Part shown: one piece after another, positions 1,381 through 55,308 of the stretch
Layout of the letters: each line of letters starts with the position of its first letter
Position numbering within the stretch: position 1 is the first letter of the stretch
Source of the DNA: Escherichia coli
Lineage (GTDB): Bacteria > Pseudomonadota > Gammaproteobacteria > Enterobacterales > Enterobacteriaceae
DNA: 64,000 bases
NCBI RefSeq assembly: GCF_017348835.2
Contig: NZ_CP071375.1
Direction: 5' to 3' (one strand)
The notes under the pieces: generated by a model
What the model was told of the DNA's origin: nothing
The model's input: only the letters and a program-made list of their open reading frames with translations
The model's database searches: none
Program-made: the position numbers and the translations under genes

Positions 1381-2298
1381 ATGAATATTCGTGATCTTGA
1401 GTACCTGGTGGCATTGGCTGAACACCGCCATTTTCGGCGTGCGGCAGATTCCTGCCACGTTAGCCAGCCGACGCTTAGCGGGCAAATTCGTAAGCTGGAA
1501 GATGAGCTGGGCGTGATGTTGCTGGAGCGGACCAGCCGTAAAGTGTTGTTCACCCAGGCGGGAATGCTGCTGGTGGATCAGGCGCGTACCGTGCTGCGTG
1601 AGGTGAAAGTCCTTAAAGAGATGGCAAGCCAGCAGGGCGAGACGATGTCCGGACCGCTGCATATTGGTTTGATTCCCACGGTTGGACCGTACCTGCTACC
1701 GTATATTATCCCGATGCTGCACCAGACCTTTCCAAAGCTGGAAATGTATCTGCATGAAGCACAGACCCACCAGTTACTGGCGCAACTGGACAGCGGCAAA
1801 CTCGATTGCGTGATCCTCGCGCTGGTGAAAGAGAGCGAAGCATTCATTGAAGTGCCGTTGTTTGATGAGCCAATGTTGCTGGCTATCTATGAAGACCACC
1901 CGTGGGCGAACCGCGAATGCGTACCGATGGCCGATCTGGCTGGGGAAAAACTGCTGATGCTGGAAGATGGTCACTGTTTGCGCGATCAGGCAATGGGTTT
2001 CTGTTTTGAAGCCGGGGCGGATGAAGATACACACTTCCGCGCGACCAGCCTGGAAACTCTGCGCAACATGGTGGCGGCAGGTAGCGGGATCACTTTACTG
2101 CCTGCGCTGGCTGTGCCGCCGGAGCGCAAACGCGATGGGGTTGTTTATCTGCCGTGCATTAAGCCGGAACCACGCCGCACTATTGGCCTGGTTTATCGTC
2201 CTGGCTCACCGCTGCGCAGCCGCTATGAGCAGCTGGCAGAGGCCATCCGCGCAAGAATGGATGGCCATTTCGATAAAGTGTTAAAACAGGCGGTTTAA
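1381..2298 (+). CDS. oxyR: LysR-family oxidative stress regulator OxyR (305 aa)
   Basis: Protein begins [22 protein letters not shown]; the ORF-track start at 1351 is an upstream extension. Confidence 0.95.
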
Positions 2299-3681
2299 AC
2301 CGTTTAACGCAGCTACCCGATAGGCTTCCGCCATCGTCGGGTAGTTAAAGGTGGTGTTGACGAAGTACTCAATAGTGTTGCCGCCACCTTTCTGTTCCAT
2401 AATCGCCTGACCGATATGAATAATTTCGGCAGCGCGCTCGCCAAAGCAGTGAATGCCCAGAATCTCTTTTGTTTCCCGATGGAACAAAATTTTCAGCGTG
2501 CCCACGTTCATGCCGACGATTTGTGCACGTGCCAGATGTTTAAACTGGGCGCGGCCCACTTCATATGGCACTTTCATCGCGGTCAGCTGCTGTTCGGTTT
2601 TGCCCACAGAGCTGATTTCCGGGATGGTGTAAATGCCGGTAGGGATATCTTCAATCAGATGCGCGGTGGCTTCGCCTTTTACCAGCGCCTGCGCGGCAAT
2701 GCGCCCCTGGTCATAGGCCGCTGATGCCAGGCTCGGATAACCAATCACGTCGCCCACCGCGTAAACGTGCGGCTGTGCGGTCTGATACATGCTGTTGACC
2801 TTCAGCTGTCCGCGACTGTCAGTTTCCAGCCCAATGTTCTGTAACGCCAGCGAATCGGTATTACCGGTACGACCGTTGGCATAGAGCAGGCAGTCAGCTT
2901 TCAGTTTTTTACCCGACTTCAGATGCATGATCACACCGTCGTCACAGCCTTCGATCTTCTCGTACTCTTCGTTGTGGCGAATCACTACGCCACTGTTCCA
3001 GAAGTGATAGGAGAGAGAATCTGACATCTCTTGATCGAGAAATGCCAGCAGGCGATCGCGGGTGTTGATCAGATCCACTTTTACATCCATACCGCGGAAG
3101 ATCGACGCATATTCACAGCCGATCACTCCAGCACCATAGATAAGTACATGGCGCGGTTCGTGGTGCATGCTAAGAATTGAGTCGCTGTCGTAAATGCGTG
3201 GATGGGTGAAATCAACATCTGTTGGATGATATGGACGAGAGCCGCAGGCAATAACAAATTTTTCAGCGGTTAGTGTTTCAACGCTGCCGTCCGGGCAATC
3301 CAGCGCCAACGTATGCTCGTCAACAAAGCGAGCGTTCCCCTGCAATATTTCACAGTGATTACGTTCGTAAAATCCCTGACGCATGCGCGTTTGTTGATTA
3401 ATCACGTTATCGGCATGGTTAAGGATATCGGCAAAAGAAGAGCGGAGCAGTCGGGAATGGTCGCTGTATAGTGGGTTTTGATTGAATTCTATAATGCGGC
3501 TGACGGCGTGACGGAGAGCTTTCGACGGGATGGTGCCCCAGTGGGTGCAACCGCCGCCAACATTTTGATAACGCTCGATAACTGCGACGCGCGCACCTTG
3601 CTTAACCAGGCCCATTGCAGCGCCTTCGCCGCCGGGGCCGGAACCTATTACTATGGCATCGTAATCGTAGGAATGTGGCAT
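2281..3681 (-). CDS. sthA: soluble pyridine nucleotide transhydrogenase (466 aa)
   Basis: FAD/NAD-binding motif [12 protein letters not shown]; convergent with oxyR with an 18-nt overlap. Confidence 0.93.
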
Positions 3682-4010
3682 GGTAGGGCTTACCTGTTCT
3701 TATACATAAAAGCAACAGAATGGTAACATTTTATCGCGGGTAAGCCAATTGATCCCCGTCATTAATCTGGCTATAGCGTGAGCGGCCTTTGCTTTGTCTG
3801 CCTCCTTCTTAACTTATTTATTCACTATTAATCGCTTTTTCTTATGGCTGATAGTTTTATCTTGCCGAAGCGTGCTTTTTTGTTATTGTCTTTATGAAAT
3901 CTTCTTATAAAACAAATATATAAATATTTTATATTGATGGGTTATTTGTATTTATACCATCAATAAAATCCGTTAATTAGCCTGTTTATAAGTGAATAAA
4001 GGAATAGCCG

Positions 4011-5177
4011 ATGATCGAACACTATATTCGAGGGTTTGAGGAAGAACTGCGTGAGATCCGCCATCAGATCCACGAAAACCCGGAGCTGGGATTACAGGAA
4101 TTTAAAACCAGTGCTTTGGTAGCGGAAAAGCTGCGCCAGTGGGGTTATGAGGTTGAGCAAGGGCTGGCGACAACCGGCGTGGTAGCCACGTTAAAAGTGG
4201 GCGACGGAGAGAAAAGTATTGGCCTGCGGGCGGATATGGATGCGTTGCCGATTTATGAAAATAGTGGCAAGCCCTGGGCCAGTAAACATCCTGGTTTAAT
4301 GCACGCCTGCGGGCATGACGGGCATACCACCATACTGCTGGGGGCCGCGCGTTATTTTGCCGAAACCCGCCGTTTTAACGGCACGTTACGTCTTATCTTC
4401 CAGCCTGCGGAAGAGATGATTAACGGCGGTGAGATCATGGTTAAAGAGGGGCTTTTTGATCGTTTCCCCTGCGATGTCATTTTCGGCATGCATAACATGC
4501 CCGGTCTGCCGGTGGGTAAGTTTTATTTCCAGCCAGGGGCACTGATGGCGTCAATGGATCAGTTCCATATTACGGTTCGTGGTTGTGGCGGACACGGTGC
4601 GATCCCGCACAAAGCCATCGATCCGGTGCTGGTTGCCGCACATATCACTACCGCATTACAAAGCATTGTGTCGCGCAATGTCGATCCGCTGGAAGCGGCG
4701 GTAATTACCGTTGGCAGCATTGTTGCAGGGGAGGCGGCTAACGTCATTCCTGACAGTGCTGAGATGAAAATCAGCGTCCGCTCTCTTAGCCGCGATACCC
4801 GACAACTTCTTCTGACCCGTATTCCTGCTTTGGCACAGGCCCAGGCTGCCAGCTTTGGTGCTACGGCTGAGGTTACGCATGTTAACGGTACACCGGTATT
4901 AGTGAATGACGAGGAGATGGCGCGCTTCGCCTGGCAGGTGGCGTGTAAAACGTTTGGTGAAGATCGGGCCGAGTTTGGCATCAAGCCCCTGATGGGCAGT
5001 GAGGATTTCTCTTTCATGCTGGAAGCCCAACCCAAAGGCGGTTTCCTGTTATTCGGTAATGGCGATGTCGGGGAGGGTTCCTGCATGGTGCATAACCCGG
5101 GTTACGACTTCAACGATGCAAGTCTGGTCCCGGCAAGCAGCTACTGGGGCGCACTGGTAGAAGCCTGGCTGCAATAA
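4011..5177 (+). CDS. M20/M20D-family amidohydrolase (hippurate hydrolase / N-acyl-amino-acid amidohydrolase-like), 388 aa
   Basis: Metal-ligand context HACGHDGHT and overall M20D-like sequence; AT-rich upstream region; substrate cannot be told from sequence. Confidence 0.8.
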   Translation: MIEHYIRGFEEELREIRHQIHENPELGLQEFKTSALVAEKLRQWGYEVEQGLATTGVVATLKVGDGEKSIGLRADMDALPIYENSGKPWASKHPGLMHACGHDGHTTILLGAARYFAETRRFNGTLRLIFQPAEEMINGGEIMVKEGLFDRFPCDVIFGMHNMPGLPVGKFYFQPGALMASMDQFHITVRGCGGHGAIPHKAIDPVLVAAHITTALQSIVSRNVDPLEAAVITVGSIVAGEAANVIPDSAEMKISVRSLSRDTRQLLLTRIPALAQAQAASFGATAEVTHVNGTPVLVNDEEMARFAWQVACKTFGEDRAEFGIKPLMGSEDFSFMLEAQPKGGFLLFGNGDVGEGSCMVHNPGYDFNDASLVPASSYWGALVEAWLQ

Positions 5178-5220
5178 ATAAAAAAACAACACAACAACTC
5201 TTTATGGCAAGGAATATGGA

Positions 5221-6541
5221 ATGACGGCGATCGTAAATGAAAGCGTGAGTGTGAAGAAAAAGCCTAGTGGCAGGCGGGTGATTTTTGCTTCGGCGTTTGG
5301 CAATGCGCTCGAATTTTTTGATTTTGGCGTTTACAACTTTTTTGTGGTCTATATCAGTACGCTATTTTTCCCGCCCAGCGCTGATCACAATGTCGCGCTG
5401 TTACTGGCATTTGCAACGTTTGGCGTGAGTTTTTTTATGCGCCCGCTTGGTGGAATTATCGTCGGGGCCTGGGCCGATCGTTTCGGACGCAAACCCGCGA
5501 TGGTGTTCACCATTGCCCTGATGAGCCTCGGCACGTTGATGATTGGCATTGCGCCGACGTATGAAACGGCGGGCTATTGGGGAACCGCGACGCTGGTGCT
5601 AGCGCGTCTAATTCAGGGCGTTGCGGCAGGAGGCGAAGTCGGTGCCTCAATGTCTTTGTTGGTTGAATCAGCTCCGGCAAATCGTCGCGGCTTTTACAGC
5701 AGTTGGTCACTGGCGACTCAAGGCCTGGCAACAACCTTTGGTGGTGTTGTCGCTTTAGGTTTAAGTGCATGGCTGCCCTTTGCGACAGGTTCAGAAACCG
5801 TAATGGCTGAATGGGGCTGGCGTGTGCCATTTTTTATTGGCGTGTTATTAGCACCTATCGGTTGCTGGTTGCGTCTGAGCCTGGAAAATGACGTGCCTGA
5901 GCCTGCCTGTGCGCAATAAAAAAGCTGCTACCAGCGAAAGCGCGTTTTCTCTGCTCCTGCAACATAAGGCGACTATCGTTAATGGCGTTTTACTCGCTAT
6001 TGGTAGCACGGTCGCAACCTATATCTCCCTCTTTTATTACGGCACCTGGGCGGCGAAGTATCTGGCGATGCCTCAACATTATTCTCATGCAGCGATGTTA
6101 CTGGCGGGCGTTATTACGTTTGTGGGTGCGCTGCTTGTGGGGATGTTGTGCGATTCGGTCGGGCGTAAAAAGCTGATTTTAATCTCCCGTGTGATGGTGC
6201 TGATCTGTAGCTGGCCGTCATTCTGGCTGTTGGTGAATTACCCAAGCCCAGGCATGTTGCTGACGGTGGTTTTCGTGATGGTCAGCTTTACCACGCTTGG
6301 CGGTGTGCCAGTGATGTTGTTGATCTCTGAACTGTTGCCGAAACGGATTCGGGCATTGGGTTTTGCGCTGGTTTATAGCATTGGTGTGGCAATCTTTGGC
6401 GGTTTTGCTCAATATTTCGCTACGCAATCCATCGTGTTGCTGGATAGTTTGACGGCTCCGGCGTGGTATTTGGGTGGAGGCACGTTGCTGTCGATGTTGG
6501 CGTTGTTGTACGTAAAAGAACCGGCCAAAGAATTGCAGTAA
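5221..6541 (+). pseudogene. MHS-family MFS transporter (ShiA/KgtP/ProP-like) interrupted by a frameshift; two ORFs 5221-5919 and 5888-6541
   Basis: N-terminal ORF has MFS motifs (RPLGGIIVGAWADRFGRK, ARLIQGVAAGGEVG); C-terminal ORF continues the 12-TM architecture in the +1 frame; the frames overlap at 5888-5919 next to an A6 run. Confidence 0.7.
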
Positions 6542-9162: not shown

Positions 9163-11046
9163 ATGATTAAAAAAGCTTCGCTGCTGACGGCGTGTTCTGT
9201 CACAGCCTTTTCTGCTTGGGCACAGGATACCAGCCCGGATACTCTCGTCGTTACTGCTAACCGTTTTCAGCAGCCAGTAAATACTGTCCTTGCACCTACT
9301 GATATTGTTACCCGTGAGGATATTCAACGCTGGCAGTCGAAAGACCTCAACGATGTTATGAGTCATCTCCCCGGTGTAAATATCTCTCAAACTGGTGGAA
9401 TGGGGACGAGTTCTTCTCTTTATGTTCGTGGCACTGAATCGCGCCATGTTTTAGTGTTGATTGACGGTGTGCCGATGGCTCGTGCCGGTATCGACAATGC
9501 AATTGATATTAGCCAGTTCCCGGTATCACTTGTACAGCGTGTTGAATATATTCGTGGGCCGCGTTCTGCCGTTTATGGTTCTGGTGCCATCGGAGGTGTG
9601 GTGAACATTATTACAATGAGTAATGATGAGAAAGCTCAGATCAACGCAGGAATGGGTACAAATGGTTATCAAGCCTATGATGGGGTAATAAATAAACGTT
9701 TTGGCGATACGATGGTAACAGCAGCAGGTGCTTACCAGACGACCAAAGGTTTTAACATTCAGCCTGGCTCACCATACAGTGGTGATAGCGATCGCGATGG
9801 ATATCGCAACAAACTTTTCTGGGGGGGGCTGCAGCATAAGTTTAACGATAACTTCTCGGGGTTCTTCCGTGGTTACAGCTACACAGCTAATAATGATTAC
9901 GACCAGGGCTCGATGTATGGTTCTGCTACTGGCAACGAAGAAGCTCAGAATTACAACCAGTCCTGGGATACTGGCCTACGCTATAACTCCGGCATCTATT
10001 CGTCTCAGTTAATTGCTAACTATCAACGACTCAAGAATTATAACTACACAAATAATCTTGGTCGTTATGCGGGAGATGCCACCCTGGATGACATGGAACA
10101 GCGTTATATTCAGTGGGGTAATAGCATTGAGGTAGGGCATGGTGCAATTAGCGGCGGGATCGATTGGAAACAGGAAAAACTGACGTCCAGCAGCATTACA
10201 AAATCAGATGATTACGAACGCGATACCACCGGGTTATACCTGACTGGACAGCAACAGATTTCCAATGTGACTTTGGAAGCTTCTGGCCGAGAAGATCATG
10301 ATGAACAGTTTGGCTGGCATGGTACCTGGCAGACAGCTGCTGGCTGGGAGTTTATTGATGGCTACCAGGCAACACTTTCTTACGGTACCAGTTTTCTTTC
10401 GCCTTCTCTTGGACAGCAATACGGGGCTGCTCGCTTTGCTTCAATTTATGGTCCTGGTATTGCAGCCAACCCAAATTTGAAGCCAGAAGAATCTAAACAG
10501 TGGGAGATTGGAATTGAGGGGGTAACTGGGACTCTGGATTGGCGGCTCTCAGGATATCGTTATGAAATTCAGAACCTGATTGATTATAAAAGCATAAATA
10601 ATGTCAACCAGTACATTAATGTGAAATCAGCCACGATTAAAGGGCTGGAATGGACGGGAAATATTACAACCGGTCCTGTTGAACATCGCTTGACGTTACA
10701 ATATGTTGACCCGCGCGATGATGAAACAGATAAAGTGCTGTACCGTCGGGCAAAACAGCAGGTTAAGTACGAGTTGACTGGACAAGCTTATGGTTTCGAA
10801 TGGGACGTTTCTTACCAATATATAGGTCAACGATACGACAACGCTTATGACGAGACCTCTGGCTCATCACATACAGTTAAATTAGGCGGTGTGAGCTTGT
10901 GGGATCTTGCGGTTGCGTATCCGGTCACCTCTCACCTGACAGTTCGTGGTAAAATAGCCAACCTGTTCGACAAAGATTATGAGACAGTCTATGGCTACCA
11001 AACTGCAGGACGGGAATACACCTTGTCTGGCAGCTACACCTTCTGA
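9163..11046 (+). CDS. btuB: TonB-dependent outer-membrane vitamin B12 receptor (about 627 aa here)
   Basis: Signal peptide MIKKASLLTACSVTAFSAWA, TonB box DTLVVTA, C-terminal aromatic residue; ORF-track start 9118 is a leader extension. Confidence 0.93.
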   Translation: MIKKASLLTACSVTAFSAWAQDTSPDTLVVTANRFQQPVNTVLAPTDIVTREDIQRWQSKDLNDVMSHLPGVNISQTGGMGTSSSLYVRGTESRHVLVLIDGVPMARAGIDNAIDISQFPVSLVQRVEYIRGPRSAVYGSGAIGGVVNIITMSNDEKAQINAGMGTNGYQAYDGVINKRFGDTMVTAAGAYQTTKGFNIQPGSPYSGDSDRDGYRNKLFWGGLQHKFNDNFSGFFRGYSYTANNDYDQGSMYGSATGNEEAQNYNQSWDTGLRYNSGIYSSQLIANYQRLKNYNYTNNLGRYAGDATLDDMEQRYIQWGNSIEVGHGAISGGIDWKQEKLTSSSITKSDDYERDTTGLYLTGQQQISNVTLEASGREDHDEQFGWHGTWQTAAGWEFIDGYQATLSYGTSFLSPSLGQQYGAARFASIYGPGIAANPNLKPEESKQWEIGIEGVTGTLDWRLSGYRYEIQNLIDYKSINNVNQYINVKSATIKGLEWTGNITTGPVEHRLTLQYVDPRDDETDKVLYRRAKQQVKYELTGQAYGFEWDVSYQYIGQRYDNAYDETSGSSHTVKLGGVSLWDLAVAYPVTSHLTVRGKIANLFDKDYETVYGYQTAGREYTLSGSYTF

Positions 11047-13924: not shown

Positions 13925-14117
13925 CTTGCTGGTTTGTGAGTGAAAGTCACCTGCCTTAATATCTCAAAACTCATCTTCGGGTGATGTTTGAGATATTTGC
14001 TCTTTAAAAATCTGGATCAAGCTGAAAATTGAAACACTGAACAACGAGAGTTGTTCGTGAGTCTCTCAAATTTTCGCAACACGATGATGGATCGCAAGAA
14101 ACATCTTCGGGTTGTGA

Positions 14118-47074: not shown

Positions 47075-47123
47075 GGCGAGTAAAAATGACTCGCCTGCTG
47101 CGGGTGGCGAGTCATTTTTACTC
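47075..47123. promoter_or_regulatory. ZraR enhancer: paired dyad-symmetric sites between the divergent sigma54 promoters
   Basis: GGCGAGTAAAAATGACTCGCC (47075-47095) and GGCGAGTCATTTTTACTC (47106-47123) are inverted copies of one another. Confidence 0.7.
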
Positions 47124-55124: not shown

Positions 55125-55308
55125 CTTGCTGGTTTGTGAGTGAAAGTCACCTGCCTTGATATCTCAAAACTCATCTTCGGGTGATGTTTGAGATATTTGC
55201 TCTTTAAAAATCTGGATCAAGCTGAAAATTGAAACACTGAACAATGAAAGTTGTTCGTGAGTCTCTCAAATTTTCGCAACTCTGAAGTGAAACATCTTCG
55301 GGTTGTGA

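Follow-up and report, generated by a model that had tools for sequence, protein, structure and literature searches.

The locus and its strain-variable operon

The sequence analysed here, which we call the window, is a 64-kb (64,000-nucleotide) stretch of the Escherichia coli chromosome with the gene order argH, oxyR, sthA, M20 aminoacylase, MFS transporter, fabR, yijD and trmA. The divergent neighbour sthA (2281-3681, minus strand) encodes soluble transhydrogenase. The aminoacylase gene (4011-5177, plus strand) encodes a 388-aa protein of the M20 aminoacylase family that is sometimes annotated as hippurate hydrolase. Its start codon at 4011 is also the RefSeq-annotated start in strain PE164, which is 99.9% identical over the segment. 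A metabolite:H+ symporter (MFS) gene follows on the plus strand (5221-6541) and appears as two ORFs in this window. A 4-bp tandem duplication of GCCT at 5901-5904 splits its 438-aa ORF into 5221-5919 and 5888-6541. The duplication is absent from PE164, O157:H7 and E. albertii; either the gene is a pseudogene in this strain or the split comes from a sequencing error.

Between sthA and the aminoacylase gene lies a 329-bp intergenic region of 33% G+C. Its aminoacylase-proximal 208 bp (3803-4010) form an AT-rich regulatory region that is absent from K-12, and the left breakpoint of the strain-variable segment falls near 3802. The first-pass annotation placed an inverted repeat in AT-rich DNA directly upstream of an amidohydrolase gene, in a variable segment without a regulator gene. 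Both descriptions hold: 3803-4010 is 26% G+C, and the segment encodes the M20 aminoacylase and the MFS transporter only.

Of 5426 complete E. coli genomes, 1505-1507 (about 28%) carry the aminoacylase-MFS pair together with its upstream region. Among these carriers are B2/ExPEC strains, O157:H7 and Nissle 1917. In the genomes sampled from other Escherichia, the pair is found at this position too in E. albertii, in one strain of E. fergusonii and in an unclassified Escherichia. The best 120 matches in a protein database search are all 99-100% identical, and those with a source name are all E. coli. The nearest enzyme outside Escherichia is 63% identical and belongs to the betaproteobacterium Silvimonas, where no recognisable regulator was seen among the neighbouring genes; plasmid-borne relatives are below 60%. 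Compared with O157:H7, the window differs by 2.6% in the aminoacylase gene and by 6.5% in the MFS gene, against 0.3-0.8% in oxyR, sthA and fabR. The higher divergence of the accessory genes suggests old allelic lineages or recombination at the locus.

K-12 lacks the pair, yet the final ~37 bp of the MFS gene, with its stop codon, remain in place, as does a weakly similar stretch that matches the first ~75 bp after window position 3802. Since the 3' end of the MFS gene is still there, the sthA-fabR arrangement of K-12 is a deletion derivative and not the ancestral state, so the earlier term "insert" for this segment is inexact. The retained K-12 stretch (1910-1990 of the compared sequence, for a segment equal to window 3803-6505) adjoins fabR on its upstream side and may carry the fabR promoter. 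A literature search found no paper on regulation of the aminoacylase-MFS operon. The name hipO (hippurate hydrolase) is listed among genes associated with a uropathogenic clade (PMC4819403).

The inverted repeat, its alleles and its conservation

The repeat is where it had been reported, exact in its letters and coordinates. The left arm TATTGATGG occupies 3932-3940, the AT-rich 16-nt spacer GTTATTTGTATTTATA occupies 3941-3956, and the right arm CCATCAATA occupies 3957-3965. The window reads tatTATTGATGGgttatttgtatttataCCATCAATAaaatcc across it. The whole lies 46-79 nt upstream of the ATG at 4011, which agrees with the distance first given. The perfect arms stop at 9 bp because a3931 and a3966, directly outside them, do not pair. 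If a 2-nt offset is allowed the symmetry continues outward as ATTTTAT / ATAAAAT, and this is a point against the reading we favour below, that the symmetry is incidental.

Several other features touch the repeat. One further copy of the word TATTGATGG lies in the window, within the btuB reading frame at 10353. In strain ZJ3920 a copy of IS1 sits inside the right arm with a 9-bp target duplication, TATACCATC, equal to window 3953-3961; this copy (3151-3935 of the compared sequence) comes to lie between the aminoacylase gene and its upstream region. Another perfect inverted repeat, of 10 bp, is formed by TTTATTCACT at 3817-3826 and AGTGAATAAA at 3991-4000, with 164 nt between them. The two copies enclose all of the AT-rich DNA, the right one overlapping the Shine-Dalgarno sequence. 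Such a repeat turns up in 14% of shuffles, and the left copy is variable in strain 7CC.

The comparison of the upstream region took in three other Escherichia lineages and 13 E. coli genomes, among them ST131, Nissle 1917, O157:H7 and animal isolates. The first-pass annotation had pointed to absence from orthologous loci as a refutation of the operator idea; the repeat is not absent, since the 8-bp cores TATTGATG (3932-3939) and CATCAATA (3958-3965) are identical in all 15 orthologous loci read, the three non-coli lineages included. The innermost base of the left arm, 3940, is polymorphic. The window, ST131 and others carry G there; Nissle 1917, O157:H7, E. albertii and the E. fergusonii strain carry A, and an unclassified Escherichia carries C. 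Its partner C3957 is constant whatever base stands at 3940, so no compensating change has occurred. Judging from the aligned sequences, the conserved object is an 8-N18-8 repeat, TATTGATG-N18-CATCAATA. The presence of A3940 in E. albertii, the E. fergusonii strain and O157:H7 suggests that the ninth pair may be a derived gain.

Allele counts over 42 nt (3928-3969) in the 1507 carrier genomes give the same picture. The perfect 9-bp allele, G3940, is found in 637 genomes, A3940 in 514, A3940 together with C3955 (the O157 type) in 309, and other alleles in 47. Summed over both A alleles, 823 of the 1507 carriers have A at 3940. The description of the repeat as a perfect 9-bp one is thus true of the window and does not extend to the carriers as a group, where the perfect form is seen in 637 of 1507 genomes only. 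The three major alleles account for 1460 of 1507 genomes and all of them keep both 8-bp arms. This retention of the arms counts in favour of an operator.

The same can be said of where the variation falls, to a degree. Within the spacer, 3948 changes from T to A in unclassified Escherichia and 3955 from T to C in O157:H7. Counting 3940 as well, 3 of the 18 positions of the N18 spacer are variable and 0 of the 16 arm positions are, across 15 loci and four Escherichia lineages. All three variants in the spacer is the pattern expected of a true dyad operator, but there are so few substitutions that the contrast is not significant (p about 0.14). The result is similar over a longer stretch: 5 sites are variable in the 83 nt of 3928-4010, none of them in the 16 arm positions (p about 0.33).

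This proximal block (3928-4010, plus strand), which holds the repeat, the leader and the Shine-Dalgarno sequence AAGGAA (3999-4004), is strongly conserved. Against E. albertii it differs at 1 of 83 positions (1.2%). The distal part of the AT-rich region (3803-3927) differs at 7 of 125 (5.6%), the sthA-proximal intergenic DNA (3682-3802) at 7 of 121 (5.8%), the aminoacylase-MFS spacer at 4 of 42 and the MFS-fabR spacer at 11 of 103 (about 10%). At four-fold degenerate sites 24% differ in the aminoacylase gene, and for sthA the figure is 32%. The block diverges far less than these four-fold sites, and we conclude that it is under purifying selection. The 45 nt from the repeat to the start codon (3966-4010) are as conserved as the arms, so the conservation fits a promoter, a leader and a ribosome-binding site, and the symmetry is not singled out.

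Chance expectation and searches for recurrence

How often would such a repeat arise with no function at all? We used dinucleotide-preserving shuffles of the 329-bp sthA-aminoacylase intergenic region as the null model. Of these, 458-513 of 5000 and 303 of 3000 (about 10%) held one or more perfect 9-bp inverted repeats whose spacer was 0-30 nt, and the 208-bp AT-rich part alone gave a similar 9-10%. With the same spacers, 8-bp arms appear in 29% of shuffles and 10-bp arms in 2.4%. The repeat is statistically not distinguishable from chance. The caution in the first-pass annotation that it might be a chance occurrence in AT-rich DNA is well founded, and such an origin explains the repeat no worse than an operator does.

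The rest of the window leads to the same view. Whole-window shuffles predict 6 +/- 2.5 perfect 9-bp repeats per 64 kb. About two dozen repeats are observed and about ten of these have arms of exactly 9 bp, so the excess over chance lies in longer, mostly G+C-rich hairpins. No perfect inverted repeat in the window is longer than the one at 47078-47123, whose 18-bp arms begin GAGTAAAAATGACTCGCC and are 10 nt apart. An A/T-rich inverted repeat with AATATCTCAAA arms and a spacer of 18-22 nt occurs twice, at 13958-13997 and 55159-55196, about 41 kb apart; the two copies are probably part of a duplicated region such as an rRNA operon.

One measure goes the other way. The local hairpin has a predicted stability of -12.6 kcal/mol, and of 300 shuffles made from the AT-rich part 16 fold as stably or more so. 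A hairpin stabler than 95% of such shuffles is a point against incidental symmetry.

A search for the same dyad elsewhere, as the first-pass annotation had suggested, gave no second site: there is no other copy at up to 3 mismatches within the 64-kb window, and a metagenome scan with the exact arms gave no second enterobacterial locus among the 120 matches listed. The matches listed include this Escherichia locus at least about 15 times; the rest are unrelated, apparently mostly in coding contexts. A dispersed repeat or mobile-element end (REP, MITE or IS terminal repeat) was considered and rejected, since the repeat is found in 1507 places in 1507 genomes, one in each. It has no match on plasmids. 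Two plasmid-labelled records, NZ_CP170376.1 and one other, carry the chromosomal locus; one of them is a 169-kb record from a hybrid assembly, and both are probably mislabelled chromosome fragments. An intrinsic terminator was also rejected: no site was found in 3600-4100, and the stem is A/T-rich with a 16-nt loop and AAAATCC after it.

Candidate promoters and binding proteins, and the readings of the repeat

The sigma-70 consensus scan found no 9-of-12 promoter and only several 8-of-12 candidates. The best -10 candidate, TAAAAT (5 of 6; 3964-3969, plus strand), overlaps the end of the right arm and has a weak -35, TTATTT, upstream at 3942-3947. An 8-of-12 promoter-like pair on the plus strand (3934-3960) is made from both arms: TTGATG (3934-3939), 15 nt, and TACCAT (3955-3960). 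Another 8-of-12 candidate lies further upstream on the same strand (3862-3889), with TTGCCG, 16 nt, and the extended -10 TGnTATTGT. AAGGAA at 3999-4004 is plausible as the ribosome-binding site.

If the candidate at 3862-3889 is used, the mRNA would begin near 3896 and carry the repeat as a hairpin in a long 5' UTR, where it might stabilise the transcript or modulate translation. We regard this as very improbable. It has in its favour the extended -10 just described and the predicted stability of -12.6 kcal/mol (z -3.1), and the hairpin persists in the centroid fold of 3896-4035. Yet the whole putative leader is predicted to fold no better than shuffles (z -0.5), and the Shine-Dalgarno sequence is not sequestered in the centroid structure. 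With A or C in place of G3940 one pair is lost and nothing compensates for it, and there is no covariation. Nor does it match an RNA family; a known structured RNA was rejected on the Rfam search, whose sole hit (E 0.99) is a chance one inside coding sequence.

Published transcription starts bear on the opposite strand. In the EDL933 Cappable-seq data, supplement 6 lists sthA starts 10, 32, 40 and 152 nt upstream of the ATG (PMC10469882). In window coordinates these are about 3691, 3713, 3721 and 3833, and every one lies left of the repeat. The extra start at 152 nt (~3833, minus strand) falls in the region absent from K-12, and K-12 sthA is listed with a 12-nt leader only. A CATAAG -10-like hexamer lies near this start at 3846-3841 on the minus strand. 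The supplements of the 2014 EDL933 transcriptome have no entries with matching locus tags.

These starts matter for the idea that the arms are back-to-back divergent AT-rich promoters or, in another form, inverted high-affinity sites at which a nucleoid protein such as H-NS silences the operon. We think it unlikely that this is what the sequence records. The composition of the region, 26% G+C, fits both forms, as does the landing of IS1 at this site in ZJ3920; and no aminoacylase start is among the EDL933 starts listed, in tables that stop short of this locus. The H-NS motif is TCGATAAATT, and TCAATAAAAT at 3960-3969 is 2 mismatches from it, the nearest approach to the repeat of any of the 23 consensus sequences described below. 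The motif is degenerate, however, and common in any AT-rich DNA, and a literature search found no binding data for a nucleoid protein here. For divergent promoters the evidence is an outward TAAAAT on both strands, at 3964-3969 (plus) and 3931-3926 (minus), but the minus-strand sthA starts published in that supplement lie at 3691-3833 and not at about 3919. H-NS-silenced acquired promoters resemble this one in having 26% G+C, a lineage-variable gene pair, a weak promoter consensus and an H-NS-like motif. They differ in that the promoter region here is unusually conserved and not drifting.

A regulator of a more specific kind would be expected to leave a recognisable site. We scanned 23 regulator consensus sequences, among them Nac, Lrp, IHF, ArgR, NikR, BirA, PdhR, LexA and sigma-54, and none falls on the repeat. 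Nac, ATA-N9-TAT, matches trivially in this AT-rich DNA. The closest resemblance within the arms is to the FNR/CRP family: the left arm holds TTGAT (3934-3938) and the right arm ATCAA (3959-3963), both perfect half-sites of FNR type. In the canonical site, TTGAT-N4-ATCAA, the two are 4 bp apart, whereas here they are 20 bp apart, which is the wrong spacing, and we reject a canonical FNR/CRP site. No site of FNR/CRP pattern within 2 mismatches overlaps the repeat or 3803-4010. The best matches in 3880-4010 have 3 mismatches for FNR, located elsewhere, and 4 for CRP (TGTGA-N6-TCACA).

Two known operators do share the spacing. The BirA operator bioO is TTGTAAACC-N16-GGTTTACAA and the nik operator bound by NikR is GTATGA-N16-TCATAC. 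Both resemble the repeat in having two short inverted half-sites with 16-bp spacing over a promoter. Geometry alone therefore rules out nothing. The half-sites themselves differ: the best matches have 8 mismatches of 18 for BirA and 4 of 12 for NikR, and none is on the repeat. In the 9-N16-9 geometry, 25 bp (about 2.4 helical turns) also separate the centres of the half-sites, a distance that is unusual and out of phase for a simple dimer. The earlier claim that the geometry fits a dimeric operator is correct in that two inverted half-sites are present at a promoter, with arms 46-79 nt upstream of the ATG that overlap promoter-like hexamers; it is weaker on the spacing of their centres.

The genetic setting invites one further comparison. 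In E. coli K-12 the abgR-abgABT system places M20-type aminoacyl hydrolases and a transporter under a LysR regulator. What the two share is a catabolic unit made of a transporter gene and an M20 amidohydrolase gene. The difference is that no regulator gene is adjacent here, and no T-N11-A box of LysR type was found on the repeat.

An operator would then have to serve a regulator encoded elsewhere in the chromosome, as a dimer or tetramer that would bind the 8-bp arms across an uncontacted 18-bp spacer. From the sequence comparison we consider this possible but doubtful. Such a regulator would occlude the -35 and -10 of the aminoacylase gene until an inducer, for example an N-acyl amino acid, frees the site, and we hold this mechanism just as tentatively. 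The operator is the only reading that makes positive use of invariant arms and a variable spacer. The repeat overlaps the best -10 candidate and the promoter-like pair at 3934-3960, the variable segment has no regulator of its own, and the 16-bp spacer has its parallels in the BirA and NikR operators. Against it, the repeat is statistically indistinguishable from chance and the arm-versus-spacer contrast is not significant. There is no second site in the window or among the metagenome matches listed, no known consensus fits, the centres are out of phase for a simple dimer, and no candidate protein was found. In its fullest form the idea is that TATTGATG-N18-CATCAATA is the operator of a chromosomal regulator that switches on an operon for uptake and hydrolysis of N-acyl amino acids, with G, A or C at 3940 tuning the affinity. 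We find that version somewhat less probable still.

We favour the view that the repeat is a real but incidental symmetry in the conserved promoter and leader of a strain-variable aminoacylase-MFS operon, and we believe this about as much as we doubt it. The proximal block would hold a weak sigma-70 promoter, its best -10, TAAAAT at 3964-3969, touching the right arm, and would share its length with a leader and a ribosome-binding site. Nucleoid proteins such as H-NS typically bind DNA of this composition. Selection would act on the promoter and leader elements, and the two 8-bp words would be mirror images by chance. A dedicated dimeric regulator would not be needed. The shuffle frequencies argue for incidental symmetry, as do the G, A or C at 3940 without compensation, the conservation of the whole region and the failure to find a second copy or a consensus match. 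The invariance of the arms in 15 loci, and the placing of the repeat where a repressor would block RNA polymerase, argue against it. We therefore rank incidental symmetry first, an operator second, nucleoid-protein sites or back-to-back promoters third, and a 5'-UTR hairpin last.

As it stands, this is an ordinary short inverted repeat in an uncharacterised promoter and has little significance. Two other results are more solid: K-12 has lost the segment between sthA and fabR by deletion, and the promoter-leader of the operon is under much stronger constraint than the silent sites of its coding sequence. If the operator reading were true, the repeat would give a way into the control of an accessory aminoacylase/transporter operon found in about 28% of complete E. 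coli genomes.
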